Assembly: GCA_964373795.1 (NCBI GenBank)
Contig: CAYJVY010000016.1
Coordinates: 1-16,705 of the forward strand
Direction of reading: 5' to 3'
DNA length: 16,705 bases
Source: an uncultured archaeon
GTDB lineage: Archaea > Iainarchaeota > Iainarchaeia > Iainarchaeales > DATDZZ01
The stretch's first letter is position 1; each line of letters begins with the position of its first letter. Made by a program: the position numbers and the translations under genes. Positions 665 through 15,882 of this stretch are shown in pieces. The notes beneath the pieces are model-generated. The model saw only the letters and a list, made by a program, of their open reading frames with translations. It was not told the DNA's origin and made no database searches.

Positions 665-1627
665 ATGCCTAAAAAAATTAATGAAGCAGAGTTTGTTGCA
701 CATTTTTTAGAATTAGGAATGGATGACGTTGCAAGAGCTGGAGGAAAAGGCGCTCAACTAGGAGAAATGTTTAATGCTGGATTGCCTGTTCCGCCAGGAT
801 TTGTGGTTTTAACTGCAAGCTTTGACATGTTCATGCATGACAATAATTTGGATTCAAAAATCTATAAATTAATTGAAAAGGTAAACGAAAAAGACACTCA
901 TGAATTGGAAAGAGTTTCAAAAGAAATAAAGGAAATGATTTTGGCAGCAAAAATTCCTTCATCTGTAGAAAAATCAGTTCACGATGAATTTAAGAAATTA
1001 AAAGCAGAGTTTGTTGCAGTTCGCTCTAGCGCAACAGCTGAAGATGCTTCAACTGCTTCTTGGGCAGGAGAATTAGATACTTTTACAAATATTACTTTTG
1101 ATTCATTAGTGCATTCAGTTAGAAAATGTTGGGCTTCATTGTTTAGTCCTAGAGCAATTTTTTATAGAATTGAAAAAAACTTAAGACATGAAGAAGTTTC
1201 AGTTGGAGTTGTTGTACAGAAAATGATTCAATCAGAGATAGCAGGAGTTGCTTTCACTGTTCATCCAGTAACAAAAGATTTTGGAAAAATAGTAATTGAA
1301 GGAGCTTGGGGTTTAGGTGAAAGCGTTGTATCTGGATCTGTAACGCCAGACAATTATATTGTGGATAAAAATGGATGGTTTATTGATTCAATTGAAGTGG
1401 CATCTCAAGAACACATGTTGACAAAAGTTGAAGGCAAGACTACAAAAATTCAAGTTCCAGAACATAAAAAAGAAATGCAAAAGCTTTCAGGACAACAAAT
1501 AATTGAGTTAGCAAAAATGTGTAAAAAAATTGAAGAATACTATAAGCATCCTCAAGACATTGAATGGGCTTTAGAAGCAAACAAACTCTATTTATTGCAA
1601 ACAAGGCCAATAACTACTTTAAAATAA
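665..1627 (+). CDS. Stand-alone PEP/pyruvate-binding ATP-grasp domain protein (N-terminal domain of PEP synthase / pyruvate phosphate dikinase family)
   Basis: 320-aa ORF with family motifs GGKGAQLGEM, VAVRSSATAED, VVVQKMIQSE, AGVAFTVHP, GAWGLGESVVSG, DIEWA and a C-terminal LLQTRPITT, which marks the end of the ATP-grasp domain. There is no phosphohistidine swivel domain or TIM-barrel domain downstream. An AGTGA SD-like element at 656-660 sits 4 nt before the ATG. Confidence 0.8.
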   Translation: MPKKINEAEFVAHFLELGMDDVARAGGKGAQLGEMFNAGLPVPPGFVVLTASFDMFMHDNNLDSKIYKLIEKVNEKDTHELERVSKEIKEMILAAKIPSSVEKSVHDEFKKLKAEFVAVRSSATAEDASTASWAGELDTFTNITFDSLVHSVRKCWASLFSPRAIFYRIEKNLRHEEVSVGVVVQKMIQSEIAGVAFTVHPVTKDFGKIVIEGAWGLGESVVSGSVTPDNYIVDKNGWFIDSIEVASQEHMLTKVEGKTTKIQVPEHKKEMQKLSGQQIIELAKMCKKIEEYYKHPQDIEWALEANKLYLLQTRPITTLK

Positions 1628-4717: not shown

Positions 4718-5806
4718 TTATGGCAAGAAATCGTTTGATTTAATTTTTTCAGGCAAGTATTTTTCTGTTATAAATCGAATTCCTTTTTTTGTTAATGCTT
4801 CTAGTTCTAGTTTTATTGCTTTGGCTTTCATGTTTTCAAATTCGTCTTGCCATTCTTTTTTCTTAAACCATTCATATTTTTTCATTTCGTTTAATCTTTT
4901 TTCATCTAATTTGTTTAACTTAATTGTTACTTCTTTTGGAATTTTAAATGTTTCAACATCTTTTGTTGTTAAACCAATATATTTTGCTTTTGGAGTTGCA
5001 AGTTTTTCTTCAGAGTATGAAAGAGAAATTGAGCCTTGTTTTATTACTGAATAAATATACATTCCCCATGGATCTGCATCCATTAAGCAATAAATTGGTA
5101 AATCAAATTCTTTATTTAATCTTTGAGCTAGTCTTCTTTCAGCTCTTGAAGGCTGGCCTCTCCCAGTTAAAATAATGCATTTGTTTTTCTTCCAAAAGGC
5201 ATCTTCATTGAATCTTTTCCATACAGCATCTTTTTCAATGAATAAAACGTATTCGGCATCTATGTCCTTGAATTCAATTTTTTCAGGTTCTACATTTGAT
5301 GGAACTCCCCACCCTCCTGACCCCATTTTGTTTAAATCAATTGTGTCTTTACCGTCTTTTACTTTCATGTTTCCAACAATTACTCCTTTAGATGAAGCAG
5401 CTAAATGCAATTCTTCTCTTAACAAGTCAAGTGATGCTTCAATGTCTTCAATTAGGGGATCTGATTCCTCTTGTGATTCAAAACTGTTCTCTTGAGTTCC
5501 AGGAATTGTGTGTTTTAATGCATAATATAAATCACGAATTGAAACAGTTGCTTCTTCTGCTATTACTTTTTTTATTTCAGAGGTAACTAAAACTGTTTGC
5601 ATGAATTTTCTTGCATGCATTACATTCAAGAATTGTCTTTCAGATGTTTTGTCTCCTAATTTAATTGTTTGACTTTTTTGATCAAAGAAAACATTTCCAA
5701 GAGTTCTTACTGGAAGCTTAATTGAAGGCTCGTCTTTTTTTTCAATTTGTTTTACTACGGTTTCCCCAATTGATTCAAGTCTTTTTATTACTTCTTTGTC
5801 ATTCAT
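4718..5806 (-). CDS. top6A: DNA topoisomerase VI subunit A (Spo11 family)
   Basis: 362-aa ORF. The catalytic-tyrosine region is IRDLYYALK. Toprim motifs are FIEKDAVW (Glu) and LMDADPWG (DxD). The ATG overlaps the top6B stop (ATGA, 5803-5806), and a GGTGA SD lies 6 nt upstream. Confidence 0.93.
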   Translation of the reverse strand: MNDKEVIKRLESIGETVVKQIEKKDEPSIKLPVRTLGNVFFDQKSQTIKLGDKTSERQFLNVMHARKFMQTVLVTSEIKKVIAEEATVSIRDLYYALKHTIPGTQENSFESQEESDPLIEDIEASLDLLREELHLAASSKGVIVGNMKVKDGKDTIDLNKMGSGGWGVPSNVEPEKIEFKDIDAEYVLFIEKDAVWKRFNEDAFWKKNKCIILTGRGQPSRAERRLAQRLNKEFDLPIYCLMDADPWGMYIYSVIKQGSISLSYSEEKLATPKAKYIGLTTKDVETFKIPKEVTIKLNKLDEKRLNEMKKYEWFKKKEWQDEFENMKAKAIKLELEALTKKGIRFITEKYLPEKIKSNDFLP

Positions 5807-8800
5807 TCAAACTCACCTTCTTCTTTTACTTTTTCTTCTTTTATTACTTCTTCTTTTTCTTCAAGTTTTCCTTCTTTTTTAAGTTTTTCCTCAAGCTTTA
5901 ATTTTTTTGAAACAATGTCTACTAATTTTTTTTCAATGCTTTCACGTTTTTCTTTTGTTAACTCTGATAAACCAATTGCTATTTCTTGAGCGTATTTCAT
6001 GAAAAGTTTTTTCTTTTCTTGTTTTTCTTGTTCTCTTCTGGATTCAGATATGTGTTTCCAAATTCTTCTTCCTGCATCCATTATTCCTAGTCTTATTTCT
6101 TCTATTACTTCTTGTTCTTCAGAGATTGCTTGTTTTCCTGCTGAAGTGTAAGGAATGTGAACAGAAATTACATTCACTAATACTGTTAATGGCACGTTAT
6201 CTAAGTCTTTTACTCCGTATCTTTTCCAGTCAACTGATTCAACTGCTTTTGTTGTAGCGCATCCTCCTGCATCAAATAACAACGGAACTTTATTTGCAAA
6301 CCTCATTAACTCGATTTTTTTTTGCTCCCCTGTTTCTTCAGAGGTTCCTTGAAATACTTTTCCTGCATTTCCACCAAAAGCTATTCCTATTTCTACTTGG
6401 AATGGAAATCCTCCTTGATAAACTGTCGGTTTTCTAGTTATAACTGAAATGAATTCTGGTTGAACTATTGCTTTCATTGATTTTTCAATTCTTTCCTCTC
6501 CTATTGGCCTTAAAGCATCTAGTCTTGGAGCAATGAATTCAATTTTTTTGAATTGTTTTATTATTTCTTCTGCTTCTTCCCAAGTTAATTTTTTTGGATC
6601 CTTGTTTAAATCAAATGAAACTCCTTTAGATATTTCTTCAATTGCTTTGTCCCCCATTCTATCAAAAGAGTTTTTTAAAAAACTTGAAATCTTTCTTCCA
6701 TCAGTGTGTTTTGCTAGAGTACTTAATTCGTCTACTGTTACTCCTTTTGGATGAGGCTGAATTGCAATTGGTTTTAATGGAATTGTTTTAGATGTTCTGT
6801 GAAAGATTGTTGTTTCTCCTAAGGGATCAGAGAATTTGACTTGAACATGTGGATTAGCAATAACTGTTCTCCTCAAATATTCTAAAGGAGATTGATCGTT
6901 GTTAATGTATTTTACTCCCTTGAATTGAGCTTTAATTGCTAGTCCTTTAAATTTTTTATCTAAATCTCTTAAATTAATTATTTTTGGTTGATTTGTTTTC
7001 GCATCAACTGCTACTTCGCATGCAAAAACTTCTTTAGCTGTTCCAGAAATTACTTGAACTGTTTTACCTGTAGTCATTTGAGAAAGCATTGTACAACCAG
7101 CTGCTCCAATTCCTTGTTGGCCTCTTTGTTGAATTAGTCTATGAAATTTTGTTCCAGCAAGTAACTGTCCCAATGCTTTTCCAACTGTTTGCTTTGTTAA
7201 TCCAGGACCATTATCTGTAACTGTTATTTCTAAATGGTCTTCAGCTATTTGAGCAATTTTAACTTCAATATCAGGCAAAATATGTGATTCCTCACAAGCA
7301 TCAACTGAGTTGTGTAAACAAATTGCTCCAAATCCACCTACGAAATTCTCATCTTTTTCAATTGAGTAATCATAAACGTATTCGTTTTCTTTTGGAATTC
7401 TTTCTTCAATTTCTGTTATTGGCAGAATTCCTAAATCTCCTGCAATAAATCTTGCTGCGCTTTCTGTTATTTGTGCTTCATTTATTTTTAGAGAAGCAAT
7501 TTTTTCATAGCTTACAATTTTTTGGTTTCTTTGACTTATTGCCCATTTTAATTTTGGTTCAATTATTGTTGTCATGTCTCCTATTTCCATTGGATAGAAA
7601 TTTAGTGGCGAGTTTTTTTGTTCTGTATAGAACTCTATTTTGTAGTTTTGGCCAAATCTTGCAAGCTTGTCTTTAACAAGTCTTTGTTCTGCTTTTTTTT
7701 GGCTAAAACTATATGAATAACCCAATCCTGAAAGAAGATATTGTAATTGTGTTGAAAGTTTTTTGCTTGCAGTAACTAAAGTAATTTTTTCCTTGAGCGA
7801 AAAATTTGATTTCTTGATACATTCAAAAATTTTTCCTGACGGAAAACCATCTCCAACAGCGTATGCAATCAAGAATTCTTTGGCTTTTTCTTTTCCTGAA
7901 CTAAAAACCAGTGTGGGAATTGATTTTGTTTTAGCATTTTCTCCACACTTTAACACTTTTTTTAGCATTATTGAAATTGTTTTACTGTTAATTTTGACAT
8001 TCACAGCTGTAGCATGGGCTTTCTTTATAAGCGGCCTTATATTGAAAACCTTTTCGAACAAGTCTGCAGTATATTCAATTAATTCTTTTTCATGCGCCTC
8101 AAACGAAAAGTTTACTTCTACATTGTTTTTTCTTGTAGAACCTTCTGCTACAAACAATCCAAGTATTTGCATCAATTCTTTTGTTATTGGCATTAAAGGT
8201 TTGAGTTTGTACTTTGAATGTCTTTCCCCTATTTCACAGTTATAAAAAATCTTTTTTTCTTTTTCGTTCAATATTTTTAAAAGCCTTAAAGGCAGTCTAT
8301 CACATTTCATGTACTTGTTGTAAACCCCATAATGTTGTTCTTTTTTTGTTAGAAGCGATTTTATTTTGTTTTTCAGCTCCTTGTCAGAGTATAATATTTT
8401 TTTTACCCCGAAAACACTGAACTCTTTTAACTCTTTGTCATCAAGTTTTAGGAATTCTTCCAATAAATTTATTTCATTTATTGTTTCCTGTATCCATGGC
8501 TTTCGTGGAACAACTAAATAATCTCCAATCCTTAAATTTTCAGCTTTAACTTCTTCTATTACTCCCTTCCTTAAAGTAAATAATCCATGATGCTTTGTTG
8601 CTTCTACAAACCTGTTTCCAAGAGTTTTTATTTTGAATATTCTTTCACCATTTTCCATTTTGTGTCTATGCAATGACTTAACTTCTTTGAAAACAAGTTT
8701 TTGTGTCTCTTTGTCAAAGCAAAGCACTTCAAATTTTGGAAACTCTCTTAATGATTGCAATTCTTTTTCTTTATTTTCATTGAAACCATGCAAAGACATT

Positions 8801-9063
8801 TTATTGTCTATTACTTTCCCGATTTCTTCAAATCTTATTTCGCCGTTTTCTCTCACAACTGTTGGCGTCTCAGATGTCACGGAATTTGTTACATATTCGT
8901 GGACAATTGTTGTAAGGGTTTTAATTTTTCCAGTTAAACCAAGCATTTGCATGTTTTTTTTAAAGAATTCTGCAACAGAGTGTTCTTTGAATTCTTTTGC
9001 TAAATGTTCCGCCGTAATTTGTGTTTCTGTTTTAGTTTCTTCAACCAATTTCTTTCCCTCCAA
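5803..9063 (-). CDS. top6B: DNA topoisomerase VI subunit B, interrupted by an intein
   Basis: 1086-aa ORF. The GHKL N-box EYVTN/SVDA is split by an insertion. The G1 box TDNGPGL and G2 box RGQQGIGAAG lie downstream, followed by transducer-like sequence and a K/E-rich tail. The exteins total 561 aa, the normal Top6B size range. There is no ATG upstream of the conserved SVAEFFKKN, so the start must be TTG. Candidates are 9063 (abutting the KH gene stop) or TTG 9048, which has GGAGGG (9061-9056) 7 nt upstream. Confidence 0.9.
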   Translation of the reverse strand: MEGKKLVEETKTETQITAEHLAKEFKEHSVAEFFKKNMQMLGLTGKIKTLTTIVHEYVTNSVTSETPTVVRENGEIRFEEIGKVIDNKMSLHGFNENKEKELQSLREFPKFEVLCFDKETQKLVFKEVKSLHRHKMENGERIFKIKTLGNRFVEATKHHGLFTLRKGVIEEVKAENLRIGDYLVVPRKPWIQETINEINLLEEFLKLDDKELKEFSVFGVKKILYSDKELKNKIKSLLTKKEQHYGVYNKYMKCDRLPLRLLKILNEKEKKIFYNCEIGERHSKYKLKPLMPITKELMQILGLFVAEGSTRKNNVEVNFSFEAHEKELIEYTADLFEKVFNIRPLIKKAHATAVNVKINSKTISIMLKKVLKCGENAKTKSIPTLVFSSGKEKAKEFLIAYAVGDGFPSGKIFECIKKSNFSLKEKITLVTASKKLSTQLQYLLSGLGYSYSFSQKKAEQRLVKDKLARFGQNYKIEFYTEQKNSPLNFYPMEIGDMTTIIEPKLKWAISQRNQKIVSYEKIASLKINEAQITESAARFIAGDLGILPITEIEERIPKENEYVYDYSIEKDENFVGGFGAICLHNSVDACEESHILPDIEVKIAQIAEDHLEITVTDNGPGLTKQTVGKALGQLLAGTKFHRLIQQRGQQGIGAAGCTMLSQMTTGKTVQVISGTAKEVFACEVAVDAKTNQPKIINLRDLDKKFKGLAIKAQFKGVKYINNDQSPLEYLRRTVIANPHVQVKFSDPLGETTIFHRTSKTIPLKPIAIQPHPKGVTVDELSTLAKHTDGRKISSFLKNSFDRMGDKAIEEISKGVSFDLNKDPKKLTWEEAEEIIKQFKKIEFIAPRLDALRPIGEERIEKSMKAIVQPEFISVITRKPTVYQGGFPFQVEIGIAFGGNAGKVFQGTSEETGEQKKIELMRFANKVPLLFDAGGCATTKAVESVDWKRYGVKDLDNVPLTVLVNVISVHIPYTSAGKQAISEEQEVIEEIRLGIMDAGRRIWKHISESRREQEKQEKKKLFMKYAQEIAIGLSELTKEKRESIEKKLVDIVSKKLKLEEKLKKEGKLEEKEEVIKEEKVKEEGEFE
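7309..8883 (-). mobile_element. Intein (525 aa) with a LAGLIDADG homing-endonuclease domain, within top6B
   Basis: The N-terminal splice junction is ...HEYVTN|SVTSETPTVV (Ser1, block A-like), and block B is TKHH. LAGLIDADG motifs are ILGLFVAEGS (8137-8166) and LIAYAVGDG (7846-7872). The C-terminal blocks are VYDYSIEKDENFVGGFGAICLHN|S (His-Asn, then +1 Ser at 7306-7308). Removing it restores EYVTN-SVDACEE. Confidence 0.85.
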
Positions 9064-9603
9064 TCATATTTCAAGTTTTTGTTTTGCATGTTTGTGTTTT
9101 TCTAAAAAATCAAATACATTTGAATGATTTGCTCCTTCTAAAAGCATTAAAATTGCTTCTTTAGCTGTTTGCAATCCATTAAATTCTCCTATAATTGAAA
9201 CTGTTTTTCCATAAACTGATACATTAGTATTAGTTAATTCTTCTATTTGGTTTCTGGATTTACCGTTTCTTCCAATCACTCTTCCTTTTTTTTGATTTAA
9301 TATTTTTGAATTCTTTGTTCCAACCAATTCAGTTAAGTTAATTACTTCTAAAAAGAATTGATCATTTAATAAAAGTAATGCATGCTCTGGAGAAAAACCT
9401 CTTGCAATTCCAGTAATAATGTCTTTTGCTTTTAAAATACCTGTATCTGTTTTAGCTTTATTAATTATTTCAACATCTCCAGTTGAACTATTAATTTTAA
9501 TCGAAGTCATGGTTTGTTTTTCAATTGCTTTCTTTGTTTTTCCTTGAGGGCCAATTAATACTGCTATTCTGTCTTTTGGAATTCTAATAAATTCTTCTTC
9601 CAT
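9064..9603 (-). CDS. Double-KH-domain RNA-binding protein (archaeal Dim2/Pno1-like)
   Basis: 179-aa ORF with two KH GxxG loops (LIGPQGKTKK and VIGRNGKSRN). Its TGA stop (9064-9066) directly abuts the top6B TTG. Confidence 0.75.
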   Translation of the reverse strand: MEEEFIRIPKDRIAVLIGPQGKTKKAIEKQTMTSIKINSSTGDVEIINKAKTDTGILKAKDIITGIARGFSPEHALLLLNDQFFLEVINLTELVGTKNSKILNQKKGRVIGRNGKSRNQIEELTNTNVSVYGKTVSIIGEFNGLQTAKEAILMLLEGANHSNVFDFLEKHKHAKQKLEI

Positions 9604-9751: not shown

Positions 9752-10435
9752 TTACTTTTTTCTTTCCCCTAATAAGAAAGTATAAACAAGTGATCCTAAA
9801 ACTCCTCCTAAGACTGGGCCAACAAAGTAAACCCATAATTGTTCTAATGCAGTGCCACCTGCTTTTCCTAGTAAAACAGGCACTACTGCAGGCCCTAAAG
9901 ATCTAGCTGGATTTAAAGAAGCTCCTGAAAAAGCAATTCCTGAAAGATGTGCAACTAGTAAGTAAAACCCAATTGCAAGTGCTGCATGATGAGCTGAAGG
10001 AGATTTTTCATTTGTAACTGATAAAATTACAATCAAAAATAATGCTGTTGCTATTACCTCAAAAATTAATGCTGCATTTAATCCGAAGCCTCCAACAGTT
10101 GTTGCTCCTAAACTATTTCCTCCAATCATTGCAAAAAGAACTAAAGATGCTAGAAGTCCTCCAACAAATTGAGCAAGCAAGTAAGGAACTACCTTGTTTG
10201 CTGGAAATCTTTTTGCAATCCATAAAGCAAGTGTAACTACTGGATTAAAATGCCCTCCAGATAATGGGCCAAAAGTATAAGCTAAAACAGCTAATACAAG
10301 TCCTGCTGTGAATGCAATTGCTACAAGGTTTACTAAAGTAAAGCCTTGAGTTAAAGCAAGTGAACCCATAATTGTTGCAGTAATTGCAAAAACTAATCCA
10401 AATGTTCCAAGTAATTCTGCCACTAAGTCTTTCAT
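9752..10435 (-). CDS. MIP-family channel (aquaporin/aquaglyceroporin)
   Basis: The ORF track starts at TTG 10483. ATG 10435 (MKDLVAELLG) is preferred because GGAGGGAG lies immediately upstream (10446-10439). First motif is HFNPVVT (NPV), second is SLNPARSLGP (NPA). The protein is hydrophobic throughout, compatible with the six-TM fold of the MIP family. Confidence 0.85.
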   Translation of the reverse strand: MKDLVAELLGTFGLVFAITATIMGSLALTQGFTLVNLVAIAFTAGLVLAVLAYTFGPLSGGHFNPVVTLALWIAKRFPANKVVPYLLAQFVGGLLASLVLFAMIGGNSLGATTVGGFGLNAALIFEVIATALFLIVILSVTNEKSPSAHHAALAIGFYLLVAHLSGIAFSGASLNPARSLGPAVVPVLLGKAGGTALEQLWVYFVGPVLGGVLGSLVYTFLLGERKK

Positions 10436-10493
10436 TATCTCCCTCCAAAAATAGTTAAAAATAGTTAATTGAATTAACTTCAATCAATTTAAA

Positions 10494-11319: not shown

Positions 11320-13179
11320 ATGAAAGTAAATTATTTAATTCTTGCAGTCTTGCTTGTCTTAATTCTTTTGGCTGGCTGTATTAGTGGAAAAGGTAGTGAC
11401 TCAAATGCAGACGTGAATGCAGACGTGAATGCTGATTTAAATTCCGGGAAAACTGTTTCTAATTCTTCTGGAAAATTGTCTTGTGAAATTATTTCTCCAA
11501 TAAGTGTGCTAATTGGTTCTCCAGCAAATTTTAGTTTCAAATTAGAAGGCGGAGAAGCTGAAAGCGTTGAATGGAGTTTTGGAGGGGAAGGAGAAGGCCC
11601 TTCAAATATTGAAAGCCCTTCATTTAAATACAAGTCAACTGGAAAAAAATCAGTAAGCCTTATGGTTACAACTAGTTCTGGAGAAAAAGTTGAATGCAAT
11701 GTAAATGTTAACTCAGTTGGATATAACGATTTAAGAATTACCAAAATTAAAGCAAATTCAGTTAAACCTGTTTTGAGTTTAACTGCTTCTGCTACTTCGC
11801 TTAATGGAGTGGCTCCTTTAACTGTTGAATTTGATGCAACAGCTGTTGGAGGAATTGCTCCTACAAGAAATTATACTTTTAATTGGTTAGGGGATTTACA
11901 AGAAAATAATATTCAAAATCCGAGCAAAACTTTTTCAGTAGAAGGAACTTATGCAGTTGTTGCAGAGGTTTTTGATGAAGGAGTTCCGCAAGAATTCGAG
12001 TTTGATGTTGAAGTTGAAGGAGGCTTGGCTCAATATAGCGGAGGAAAACCTGTTTATCGTTATGCTTGGACTTTTGGAGATGGAGGAACGTCTAATGAAA
12101 AAAGTCCTAAACATTTTTTCAATAAAAAAGGACAATTCCCTGTAACAATTAAGGTTACAGATGAATTATTTCAAGACAATTTTGATGCAGCTGAAAAAGC
12201 AAAACATTTAGCAGAGCATTTTTTTGAAGTAGGAGTTGAATCTCAGAGAGCGCTTAGTAATAAATTAAATATTGTTGTTGGAACGCCTCCTATTGTATTA
12301 ACAGAAGAAGCAGTTCTTGAATGTAGAATTAATTTGTCTCAAGGAAGTACTTTTTTTGCTAACAAAAAAGATTCAACTGAAAATAACTTGAAAGGATTTA
12401 ATTCAACTCATTGGGAAGGCTATAATTATGCTCCGCGCGAATTAAAAGTTAAAATTATTAGAACTCCAAACAAAGAAAAATTAAATGAATCTTACACTGA
12501 ATTTGTTTCCAGGCCAGTTAATAAAGAGGTTGCATGGTATAATCCAACTCTCAAACCAGACATATCTTATTACAATGATTTCTTTAATGAAACAGGGCCT
12601 TATTTAAAGGAATATAAGGTTAAAGATGAAAAAGGAAATTCCGAAATTGGAGTGGAAGGAAAATTTAATTTAATTTCTTATAAAAATACTCCTTATTGGT
12701 TAAAAGAATTCAAGGAATGGTCTGATCCAGCAAAAGAGGCTGAAAGCTATGATGACATTGTATTATATCAAATTACTGCAAAACAAAATTTGTGTACAAT
12801 AAAAGTTTACTCAATGTTATCTGAAGGAGCAGGATTAGCTTTGGATAAATCTAAACTGGAAGCATATGCAAAAAACCAAGCAGAACAAGTAATGAAATTA
12901 ATTATCAATAATTCTTCAATAATTTGTTCTGATAATGTTCCTGAAGTTAAAGGAGTTGCAAGGAATTATTCTGTGGAAGTTTACAATGAATTCACTCCTG
13001 AAAAAGTTAGAGACTATTGTATAATGGCTGACAAAATTCAATATGATACTTACAAGCATTACAGTTTTTGGTGTGATGGAAAATTTTGTTCTTTTGATGG
13101 AGCAGATTTAGAAGAAATTAATGGAAAAAAATTCAGAAAAAACTCTTTGTTTCATCCAACAACCAGTAATTCAAATTAA
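11320..13179 (+). CDS. Secreted/lipid-anchored PKD-repeat surface protein with an uncharacterised C-terminal half
   Basis: 619-aa ORF. It has a signal peptide with a lipobox-like LLAGC. PKD-type repeat signatures are WSFGGEGEGPSNIESPSFKY and WTFGDGGTSNEKSPKHFFNKKGQFPVTIKVTD. From about residue 290 to the end I recognised no motifs. Confidence 0.75.
   Translation: MKVNYLILAVLLVLILLAGCISGKGSDSNADVNADVNADLNSGKTVSNSSGKLSCEIISPISVLIGSPANFSFKLEGGEAESVEWSFGGEGEGPSNIESPSFKYKSTGKKSVSLMVTTSSGEKVECNVNVNSVGYNDLRITKIKANSVKPVLSLTASATSLNGVAPLTVEFDATAVGGIAPTRNYTFNWLGDLQENNIQNPSKTFSVEGTYAVVAEVFDEGVPQEFEFDVEVEGGLAQYSGGKPVYRYAWTFGDGGTSNEKSPKHFFNKKGQFPVTIKVTDELFQDNFDAAEKAKHLAEHFFEVGVESQRALSNKLNIVVGTPPIVLTEEAVLECRINLSQGSTFFANKKDSTENNLKGFNSTHWEGYNYAPRELKVKIIRTPNKEKLNESYTEFVSRPVNKEVAWYNPTLKPDISYYNDFFNETGPYLKEYKVKDEKGNSEIGVEGKFNLISYKNTPYWLKEFKEWSDPAKEAESYDDIVLYQITAKQNLCTIKVYSMLSEGAGLALDKSKLEAYAKNQAEQVMKLIINNSSIICSDNVPEVKGVARNYSVEVYNEFTPEKVRDYCIMADKIQYDTYKHYSFWCDGKFCSFDGADLEEINGKKFRKNSLFHPTTSNSN
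11404..11439 (+). repeat. 12-bp in-frame tandem repeat (about 3 copies) encoding NADV-NADV-NADL
   Basis: AATGCAGACGTG at 11404-11415 and 11416-11427 are identical. AATGCTGATTTA at 11428-11439 is a diverged copy. The repeat lies just after the lipobox Cys. Confidence 0.8.
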
Positions 13180-14511: not shown

Positions 14512-14916
14512 CTAAATTTTTTTAATTGGATGCAATGCCCCGCAAGCAGTGCATTTAAGCATTTTCACTCCATGCTCTTCAATAAATTTAGTGTCAGGTT
14601 TTTTGCATTCAAAGCATAAAACAAATTGATTCAAATAACTGTTAAAAATTTTTTCAACTTGAAGTTGATTAAATTTTCCATTAATTATTGCTCTTTCTCC
14701 TTCAACTCCAACCGCTGTTGCAACCTCTCCTGTAATAAATTTAATTAAGTGTTTTTCTTCTCTGTTCAAGGATTTAATTATTTGATTAAAGTTTTTCACA
14801 ATAGTTTTATTTCCTTGAATAAAAGAATCTGGTTTAGGCATTTCAAATCTTTCCCTAGTTAAAGCTTCTTTAGGTAAGGAAAGATATAATCTGTCAAGCA
14901 TTTTTTCATATTCCAT
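14512..14916 (-). CDS. eif2b: Translation initiation factor aIF-2 beta subunit
   Basis: 134-aa ORF. It has an N-terminal YEKMLDRLY, a central helix-turn-helix-like core and a C-terminal zinc ribbon CFEC...CTACG. TATA box TTTAAAAA (14948-14941) lies about 27 nt upstream of the ATG. Confidence 0.9.
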   Translation of the reverse strand: MEYEKMLDRLYLSLPKEALTRERFEMPKPDSFIQGNKTIVKNFNQIIKSLNREEKHLIKFITGEVATAVGVEGERAIINGKFNQLQVEKIFNSYLNQFVLCFECKKPDTKFIEEHGVKMLKCTACGALHPIKKI

Positions 14917-14947: not shown

Positions 14948-15212
14948 ATTCGCCGTTCGCGGTTCATCCCGCGAAGCTGTGCACTACCTTTGGTAGAGCT
15001 TCGGCCTAACCAGTCGAACGGTTCAGGGTTCAGTCCTTGAAGCGCGTTCAGCCGGCAAGGCTGAAGACTGACGTCGGCCCTCGTGCTCGACGCACGAGAC
15101 GTCGCAGCCGGCGAAGCTGAGTGTCCGTAGGCCTTGCGTAGTTAGTGCGACACAGTCTCGCCGGCTGCTCGACAAGCGAAGCGAGCTCGTGTCATATGAC
15201 ATTGTACTCGCC
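14948..15212 (-). ncRNA. GC-rich structured RNA gene, class unresolved (best guess divergent RNase P RNA; SRP RNA not excluded)
   Basis: My hand count for 15001-15180 is 112/180 G+C (~62%), against ~30% in the flanks. Dense helices are present, numbered on the minus strand with nt 1 = 15212. One is AGCCGGCGA (47-55) with UCGCCGGCU (99-107). Another is GACGU-CUCGUGC-loop GUCGA-GCACGAG-bulge-ACGUC (110-143). A third is CAGCC-UUGCC-GGCUG (150-164). A fourth is CGAAGCU-CUACC-AAA-GGUAG-UGCAC-AGCUUCG (210-241). A fifth is UUCGCGG-GAUGAA-CCGCGAA (238-257). TATA-like TTTAAAT (15243-15237) would place a start near G 15212. The strand call rests on this promoter and one G-U pair only. Confidence 0.6.
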
Positions 15213-15288
15213 AAATGTGACTGCAATTGAAAAAGCATTTAAAGAAGGAATTGCTTTATATTATTGAATTACTTTCAAGGTTTGTTAA

Positions 15289-15882
15289 ATGACTGAGAAA
15301 AAAAAGTTTGAATTTGATTTTTATAAACTTGGTTTGTTTGCCTTGGCTTTAATAATTATTTTTTCAATTATTGCAATAATTGTTTTCAAAATTGATTTAG
15401 TGAAATTATTATTTTCTTTGAAAGAATTTGGTTTAGTTGGATTGTTTGTTGCAGCGTTTGTTGCAAATGCATCTCTTTTCTTGGTTACCCCGCTTGACTT
15501 AATTATTTTTACTTTTGGAGTGGTTTACCCTCCTTTAATGGTTGCAATTGCTGCAGGGCTTGGAGCAGCAATTGGGGAAATGTCTGGATATATTGTTGGA
15601 TTAGGGGGAAGAGAAACAATTGCAAAAGTTAAATTAGAACATTTACGGCATTTAGATGAAGTTTATGCAAAAATAAAGCTTTTTGGTTTTCCGTTCATCG
15701 TGTTTGGAGCATTTATTCCTTTTCCATTTGATTTAATTGGAATTACTTGCGGGTTATTTAGATATACTTGGTATAAGTTTTTTGCTGCAGCATTAATTGG
15801 AAAATTTTTTAGATACTTGTTAGTTTCATATGCTGGTTTGTATGGAGTTCAATTAATTAAAACAATTTTTTTAATTGGTTAA
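15289..15882 (+). CDS. VTT/DedA-superfamily membrane protein (YqaA-like, COG1238-like)
   Basis: 197-aa polytopic membrane ORF. FVANASLFLVTPLDLIIF, GLGAAIGEMSGYIVGLGGRE and FIPFPFDLIGITCG...GKFFRY resemble the YqaA pattern. TATA-like TTTATATT (15254-15261) lies about 30 nt upstream of the ATG. Confidence 0.55.
   Translation: MTEKKKFEFDFYKLGLFALALIIIFSIIAIIVFKIDLVKLLFSLKEFGLVGLFVAAFVANASLFLVTPLDLIIFTFGVVYPPLMVAIAAGLGAAIGEMSGYIVGLGGRETIAKVKLEHLRHLDEVYAKIKLFGFPFIVFGAFIPFPFDLIGITCGLFRYTWYKFFAAALIGKFFRYLLVSYAGLYGVQLIKTIFLIG

Follow-up and report, generated by a model that had tools for sequence, protein, structure and literature searches.

The DNA analysed here (the window) is a stretch of 16,705 nucleotides (nt) from an uncultured archaeon of the Iainarchaeales, contig CAYJVY010000016.1, whose top6B gene encodes subunit B of DNA topoisomerase VI (Topo VI) and contains an in-frame insert of 525 amino acids (aa). 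This insert is very probably a canonical class-1 intein with a LAGLIDADG homing endonuclease, located in the N-box of Top6B between the Asn that binds Mg-ATP and the Ser that follows it. The element is genuine but ordinary, and not a new phenomenon, because dozens of other archaeal genomes have the same insertion. The 1081-aa product of the gene should be annotated as two proteins, a Top6B of 556 aa and an intein of 525 aa, and the intein must be removed before Topo VI phylogenies and structure predictions. A related intein is found at the homologous Asn of bacterial GyrB proteins.

Boundaries, splicing blocks and predicted fold of the insert

The host protein is DNA topoisomerase VI subunit B: the equivalog hidden Markov model (HMM) TIGR01052 matched the precursor well above its cutoff (E=2.9e-181, 603 bits, cutoff 380.7), with a match broken into two stretches around the insert, the GHKL and transducer domains were recognised by Pfam (HATPase_c and Topo-VIb_trans, 2.7e-54 for the latter), and the top6A gene is adjacent. 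The open reading frame (ORF) and its parts are as follows.

5803-9063, minus strand: top6B ORF in its longest reading, 1086 codons, stop-free
5803-9048, minus strand: top6B precursor gene, 1081 codons plus stop, with the TIGR01052 match; public gene call P0001, 1081 aa
8884-9048, minus strand: N-extein, 55 aa, ending in ...TIVHEYVTN with the N-box Glu and Asn; aligns to M. mazei Top6B 5-49
7309-8883, minus strand: intein, 525 aa, a Hint splicing domain split by a LAGLIDADG homing endonuclease (PF14890, PF14528, AlphaFold model, PI-PkoII match)
5803-7308, minus strand: C-extein, 501 aa plus stop, starting with Ser+1 (7306-7308) in SVDACEE; aligns to M. mazei Top6B 46-497, Topo-VIb_trans 2.7e-54

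An insert of this length, at 7309-8883 and between the N-box Asn and Ser, had been proposed from inspection of the DNA, and the exact boundaries were recovered by translation and by phmmer searches against the PDB. The insert corresponds to residues 61-585 of the 1086-codon ORF, exactly 525 codons in frame; it starts with SVTSETP, ends with GAICLHN, and is preceded by ...TIVHEYVTN and followed by SVDACEES.... Query residues 16-61 aligned to M. mazei Top6B 5-49 and query residues from 583 onward to residue 46 onward, and in the alignment with S. shibatae Top6B the residues flanking the insert are Asn42 and Ser43. These alignments to solved Top6B proteins therefore place the insert directly after the N-box Asn (S. 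shibatae Asn42). In the Bergerat/GHKL fold the N-box Asn is a Mg-ATP ligand. The C-extein holds the transducer domain and what remains of the GHKL fold.

The excision was then performed in silico. Removal of the insert leaves a 556-aa Top6B in which the N-box is rejoined as EYVTN-SVDACEE, restoring the ExxxNSxDA signature, and the HATPase_c match becomes both longer (profile positions 2-96, as compared to 14-96 in the precursor) and stronger (45.3 bits versus 35.9). At the DNA level, the reconstructed empty N-box site of the window top6B is the following (here and below, a slash marks an insertion point or a splice junction).

ACAATTGTCCACGAATATGTAACAAAT/TCAGTTGATGCTTGTGAGGAATCACAT

All conserved intein blocks can be recognised in the insert. 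The motifs cited in the original prediction (TKHH, LFVAEGS, AVGDG and HN/S) were each found where it had located them, and both LAGLIDADG motifs are intact, as it had claimed, with E247 and D345 present. The blocks are listed here with their conservation among the 29 aligned N-box alleles described in the next section.

8857-8883, minus strand: block A, SVTSETPTV, with Ser1 as the nucleophile (codon 8881-8883), invariant in 29/29 alleles
8578-8604, minus strand: block B, EATKHHGLF, with T96-K-H-H99 (TxxH); T96 and H99 invariant in 29/29
8137-8163, minus strand: LAGLIDADG motif 1 (block C), LGLFVAEGS, with the catalytic acidic residue E247, in 27/29; G248 in 29/29
7924-7926, minus strand: block D lysine, K320 in KSIP; K320 and P323 invariant in 29/29
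7843-7875, minus strand: LAGLIDADG motif 2 (block E), FLIAYAVGDGF, with the catalytic acidic residue D345; G344 and D345 invariant in 29/29
7333-7380, minus strand: block F, YVYDYSIEKDENFVGG; V503, Y504, D505, S507, E512, N513, F514 and G517 invariant in 29/29
7309-7323, minus strand: block G, ICLHN, with the penultimate His524 and the terminal Asn525, both invariant in 29/29

Two Pfam models scored above their cutoffs on the insert, Intein_splicing (PF14890) with E=2.7e-18 and 66.7 bits (cutoff 35.8) and LAGLIDADG_3 (PF14528) with 7.4e-7 and 29.8 bits (cutoff 22.5), the latter in two stretches; this was the HMM check that had been suggested for the element. The NCBIfam model of the intein C-terminal region (TIGR01443, cutoff 15.6) gave 22.3 bits in the scan of the precursor and 21.1 in that of the insert. 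The insert also matches the intein segments contained in the NCBIfam models for PolII, RpoA'', Tes, V-ATPase A and GyrA. An AlphaFold2 model built with 14 homologues was confident (mean predicted local distance difference test, pLDDT, 89.8; predicted template-modelling score, pTM, 0.90), with a complete endonuclease domain. When this model was compared to the PDB with Foldseek, the top match was PI-PkoII (2cw7) over the full length (E 2e-37, TM 0.72/0.73), followed by the TliVMA intein, PI-PfuI and PI-SceI, while mini-inteins fitted the Hint part and I-DmoI and I-SceI the endonuclease core. The PDB intein structures matched are 2cw7, 7qss and 1dq3, plus the mini-inteins 5o9i and 4e2t. The assignment to class 1 thus agrees with Ser1, the TxxH motif, the terminal His-Asn, Ser+1, the Hint HMM match and the predicted structure.

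PI-PkoII, the intein-endonuclease of the Thermococcus kodakarensis Pol protein, is also the best sequence match to the insert (phmmer 1.2e-23). The two elements share a Hint splicing domain and a two-motif LAGLIDADG endonuclease with accessory regions. They differ in their host, which is a family B DNA polymerase in the case of PI-PkoII, and are only 22% identical; PI-PkoII has been characterised experimentally, whereas the window intein is known from its sequence.

From these features, we infer that the window intein would splice by the established class-1 mechanism. After translation, Ser1 would undergo an N-O acyl shift helped by T96 and H99, and Ser+1 would attack the resulting ester to give a branched intermediate. 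Cyclisation of Asn525, assisted by His524, would free the intein, and an O-N shift would ligate ...EYVTN (Asn55) to SVDACEE..., producing the 556-aa Top6B, so that the ATP site would exist only after splicing. With less certainty, homing activity can also be proposed: the freed intein, which has E247 and D345, could cut an intein-less top6B gene at the sequence encoding the N-box, and repair of the cut allele by recombination could copy the intein into it.

The N-box intein and other insertion sites in Top6B and GyrB

Relatives of the window intein were searched in 5.8 billion proteins (E<=1e-10), which gave 86 matches, and in one genome per GTDB species, using as a query the intein alignment with 8-residue flanks. 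The genome scan confirmed 552 relatives, of which the best 80 were analysed. Insertion sites were assigned by junction-motif searches. Global pairwise alignment, in which gap extension was cheap, had been tried for this mapping and was abandoned, as insertions were missed or split in P0008, P0026, P0035 and P0042-P0050.

Besides the window protein, 28 full or partial Top6B proteins carry an intein of 504-529 aa at the identical site, with junctions of the form N/S[VL][TS]...HN/S[LIV]D[AS]. When 29 alleles were aligned, S1, T96, H99, K320, D345, D505, H524, N525 and the Ser+1 of the C-extein were invariant, and E247 was present in 27/29. In view of this conservation, both splicing and the endonuclease look to be under purifying selection. 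Among the best 80 of the 552 relatives, 38 species-representative genomes have a Top6B N-box intein with both junctions readable, and four more Top6B N-box loci are partial or frameshifted; one of the latter (L043) is labelled Thermoplasmata. The hosts in this set bear the labels Micrarchaeota, Iainarchaeum, Woesearchaeota, Nanoarchaeia, Aenigmatarchaeota, Nanohaloarchaea, Archaeoglobaceae, Methanobacteriota, and several Halobacteriales, Haloferacaceae and Haloarculaceae. The N-box allele also occurs in some haloarchaeal metagenome-assembled genomes (MAGs).

The archaeal MAG inteins (for instance JAHJUD010000050.1, 'Candidatus Micrarchaeota archaeon', L002; JACQPB010000053.1, 'Candidatus Iainarchaeum archaeon', L004; and proteins P0002-P0021) share with the window copy the insertion point, the length, blocks A-G, the splicing residues and both LAGLIDADG motifs. 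The C-extein starts with SVD in the window, as opposed to the usual SLD in these alleles. The closest relative shares about 65% of the intein residues and 66% of the extein residues with the window protein. With at most 66% identity to any database protein, the window top6B appears to come from an unsampled lineage. Its extein is 59-66% identical to most sequences labelled Diapherotrites/Iainarchaeum (51% for P0055) and 44-50% identical to most of those labelled Micrarchaeota, values that favour a DPANN archaeon resembling Iainarchaeota (Diapherotrites), although the closest loci come from MAGs with mixed labels (Micrarchaeota, Iainarchaeum, 'archaeon'). The window copy is therefore best described as one more divergent member (<=65% identical to database inteins) of a widespread allele.

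At least three intein insertion sites exist in Top6B, all of them around the ATP pocket in the GHKL domain: N42/S43, Q103/T104 and V112/K113 (S. shibatae numbering; Q103/T104 was counted from the phmmer alignment to S. shibatae Top6B). The third of these, just after the G2 box, has junctions QQGIGA/C...HN/SG and is occupied in 15 of the protein-search matches. The second, before the G2 box, is also occupied in P0023, together with an N-box intein.

Inteins in haloarchaeal Top6B had been mentioned in the original prediction, and have indeed been described: halobacterial top6B genes contain one intein allele, found in 8 genomes, with junctions ...GSRFHAREQ/SLTPDQ...LSVKN/SRGQQGIG... in the supplementary alignment (Soucy et al. 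2014, PMC4071816). Whether the window intein belongs to that same allele had been left as a question, and the answer is no. The halobacterial site (Q103/T104) lies right before the G2/ATP-lid box, about 60 residues downstream of N42/S43, and is uninterrupted in the window protein (LIQQRGQQGIG). Given this different insertion site, the window intein is, judging from the junctions, not the published halobacterial allele. The halobacterial inteins (halophilic archaeon DL31, YP_004808658.1; Haloquadratum walsbyi) resemble that of the window in their host protein, Ser1 and Ser+1, and in being large, endonuclease-bearing and inside the GHKL ATP-binding domain. In contrast, the DL31 intein has a penultimate Lys where the window intein has His524. 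In a neighbour-joining (NJ) tree, which carries no bootstrap values and is therefore used as an indication only, the pre-G2-site intein of P0023 is sister to the N-box clade; this site is represented in the tree by P0023 rather than by halobacterial copies.

Top6B is listed as one of the leading intein hosts of Archaea by Novikova et al. 2016 (PMC4760082), who count 15 Top6B inteins for Euryarchaeota and 'other Archaea', and the removal of inteins from Top6 sequences is mentioned by Villain et al. 2022. Neither a description nor a name of the N-box Top6B site was found in the accessible text of Novikova 2016, Soucy 2014 and Villain 2022.

The three sites were recognised in P0007, P0010, P0023, P0028-P0029 and other proteins, and in loci L029, L032 and L036-L038. 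Some Top6B proteins have two inteins and reach 1630-1646 aa. Several haloarchaeal Top6B genes can be read in frame over 1868-2037 aa, lengths that would suggest more than one intein. P0024 (1569 aa), a divergent Top6B-like protein, seemingly contains two related inteins with atypical junctions (...LGYSITGGTPTVV..., ...ICLHN/SGLITP and ...IVLHN/SLDNLQES).

The genome scan also detected the intein family outside of Topo VI. Locus L039 (Chloroflexi MAG PHCA01000032.1, 2663-4294) encodes a bacterial GyrB, as indicated by the Pfam DNA_gyraseB and HATPase_c matches obtained after excision, and this GyrB carries three inteins.

EVVDN/SLTYDTP...CHN/SIDEAMAGY: intein at the N-box
EGDSAGG/C...HN/SAKQGRD: mini-intein
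IIM/SVD...HN/TDADVDG: intein at the Toprim site

The N-box intein of L039 is 33-41% identical to archaeal Top6B N-box inteins over about 500 residues; values are 34-36% for the Micrarchaeota/Iainarchaeota group that holds the window intein, and 29% for the window intein itself (best tblastn segment). It is much nearer to the Top6B N-box inteins than to GyrB Toprim-site inteins, and branches within the Top6B N-box clade in the NJ tree, where it is the single GyrB N-box copy placed. A protein search with this intein recovered at least 9 further GyrB proteins with both junctions at the N-box, and 3 more with the C-terminal junction only. The GyrB N-box proteins (P0087, P0089, P0090, P0094-P0098, P0101 and P0109) have junctions E[VI]VDN/S..HN/S[ILV]DEA, and their named sources are Chloroflexi, Blastocatellia, Pyrinomonadaceae and Patescibacteria/Paceibacteria. 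The corresponding GyrB N-box DNA site is the following.

GARGTNGTNGAYAAY/WSNATHGAYGAR

Top6B Asn42 and GyrB Asn46 are one conserved residue of the ATP pocket (PMC1616964). Like the window intein, those of GyrB follow this Asn, start with Ser1, end with HN and precede a Ser+1. They differ by their host, the paralogous GHKL ATPase GyrB (E[VI]VDN/.../S[ILV]DEA[ML]AG), and by their occurrence in Bacteria instead of Archaea. Taken together, the GyrB and Top6B data therefore delineate one intein family at a homologous Asn in two paralogous GHKL topoisomerase ATPases and in two domains of life. From these sequence comparisons, the family appears to have moved between paralogues and domains, namely between Top6B of Archaea and GyrB of Chloroflexi, Acidobacteria and Patescibacteria. 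It provides a tidy case in which to study jumps of homing endonucleases between paralogous conserved sites. The three ATP-pocket sites of Top6B and the Top6B/GyrB N-box family should be of modest value, mainly for intein specialists. Inteins with Ser1 and Ser+1, which do not depend on cysteine and have well-defined native junctions, can also serve protein engineering.

Possible mobility of the intein and alternative explanations

The closest Top6B clade (59-66% extein identity) contains four kinds of alleles: intein-free proteins, which are many and about 600 aa long, proteins with the N-box intein only, proteins with the post-G2 intein only, and proteins invaded at both sites (P0007, P0010). 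Two orthologues without any intein (L081 and L082) have about 62-65% extein identity to the window protein and the same gene order as the window, eIF2beta-DUF424-eIF1A-x-RIO1-KH-top6B-top6A. Their empty site reads TIVHEYVTN/SLDACEEAK. At the DNA level they differ from the window flanks almost exclusively by synonymous third-position changes, and the sole amino-acid difference beside the junction is a Leu where the window has a Val. In P0012 and P0013 the intein is 58% identical to that of the window, as compared to 44-47% for the extein, a pattern that suggests lateral movement. These syntenic intein-free relatives and the P0012/P0013 pattern would fit a mobile element, and homing, by spreading the intein among intein-less alleles, could explain the patchy distribution of the N-box intein.

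Several points nevertheless weigh against a splicing intein with an active homing endonuclease. Splicing and DNA cleavage are both deduced from the sequence and the predicted fold, and the NCBIfam model of the intein N-terminal region (TIGR01445) remained just under its cutoff (22.5 versus 24.5 bits). The NJ tree groups the inteins largely by host taxon, so that long vertical stretches are likely, and intein identity mostly tracks extein identity, the two being nearly equal in the closest relatives (about 63-66% each). The composition gives no sign of a recent arrival, with a G+C content (GC) of 0.310 for the intein and 0.323 for the extein, and a GC at third codon positions (GC3) of 0.246 for the intein, inside the window range of 0.11-0.33; as these values are within the range of the window genes, they bring no information on recent acquisition. 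Much of the history of the intein could be vertical, and the endonuclease of the window copy could be inactive despite its intact motifs. It is thus conceivable, although we consider it rather unlikely, that the intein still splices with an endonuclease that is no longer active, and persists as a fixed vertical passenger, kept since its imprecise loss would wreck the N-box. Clustering by host lineage, the similar intein and extein identities and the unremarkable composition would all be in line with this scenario, as would the lack of a precomputed LAGLIDADG_3 Pfam match in P0004, P0043 and P0050, which have the N-box intein. However, E247, D345 and K320 are intact in the window copy, and their conservation (27/29, 29/29 and 29/29) argues for purifying selection on the nuclease, whose modelled domain is complete and confident. 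Furthermore, the coexistence of intein-free, N-box-only, post-G2-only and double alleles in one clade is as expected of an ongoing homing cycle, and the inteins of P0012 and P0013 are nearer to that of the window than their exteins are.

Another possibility is that the intein is kept as a switch, with splicing, and hence the ATP site of Topo VI, responding to a cellular or environmental cue. The intein is in the ATP-binding pocket, so that the precursor must be inactive, and the three Top6B sites all cluster at this pocket. A 'panic button' role of this kind is put forward as a speculation for inteins of replication proteins by Novikova et al. 2016 (PMC4760082). Such a switch is, in our opinion, very improbable: the sequence gives no hint of a sensor, close relatives thrive without the intein, and clustering at the active site is equally explained by endonucleases that target conserved DNA combined with selection against imprecise deletion. 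Gyrase was reported in most Micrarchaeota, Woesearchaeota and Pacearchaeota, and in none of six other DPANN phyla (Villain et al. 2022), and Topo VI may plausibly be the sole type II topoisomerase of this archaeon. If the archaeon lacks gyrase, its only type II topoisomerase would need splicing to assemble an ATP pocket, and conditional splicing would amount to a post-translational switch on chromosome decatenation, a long shot in our judgement. There is hardly any room for a permanent, non-splicing insertion domain specific to the lineage, or for an artefact of annotation or assembly. With a domain of 525 aa between the Mg-ATP Asn and its neighbour, the GHKL pocket would be disrupted, and the splicing residues are all invariant over 29 alleles; the reading frame is intact through 1086 codons, and many independent contigs, obtained in different studies, show this architecture too. 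The preferred interpretation thus remains that of a class-1 intein with a LAGLIDADG homing endonuclease.

The top6B start and the surrounding genes

Two in-frame TTG codons, at 9063 and 9048 (window 9040-9100, minus strand), could start top6B. The TGA stop codon of the upstream KH gene abuts TTG 9063. TTG 9048, five codons later, has a GGAGG upstream, at a spacing of 8 nt, and is also the start of the public gene call P0001. Because of this GGAGG, TTG 9048 is likely the true start, giving a predicted precursor of 1081 aa. The protein had first been described as 1086 aa long with the N-box Asn at position 60; the ORF does read over 1086 codons, whereas the likelier start gives 1081 aa and Asn55. 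Directly downstream is the gene for the other subunit.

4718-5806, minus strand: top6A, with TOP6A-Spo11_Toprim (1.9e-61) and TP6A_N domains

The ATG of top6A overlaps the stop codon of top6B (ATGA). The other genes near top6B encode a RIO1 kinase, a KH protein, aIF1A, aIF2-beta and a DUF424 protein, and GC is about 31%, a setting that identifies the contig as archaeal.

Two genes of this otherwise conserved block are missing from the L081/L082 block, an aquaporin-like MIP gene (window 9752-10483, minus strand) and the gene of a 619-aa PKD-domain protein (window 11320-13179, plus strand). At the other end of the window, a stand-alone ORF of 320 aa (665-1627, plus strand) matches only the AMP/ATP-binding PPDK_N domain of pyruvate phosphate dikinase/phosphoenolpyruvate (PEP) synthase (E 4e-102); it has neither the phosphohistidine nor the PEP-utilising domain. 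Between the aIF2-beta gene (14512-14916, minus strand) and a VTT-domain gene (15289-15882, plus strand) lies a GC-rich island of about 260 nt (window 14950-15215). No tRNA was found in the island with ARAGORN, and Rfam gave no match with a threshold as loose as E<=1. Its GC peaks at 0.41-0.42 in 600-nt windows, as compared to about 0.31 for the window overall, and both of its strands fold far better than their shuffled versions (z -4.4 and -4.6); the island may encode a divergent structured RNA of a DPANN archaeon.

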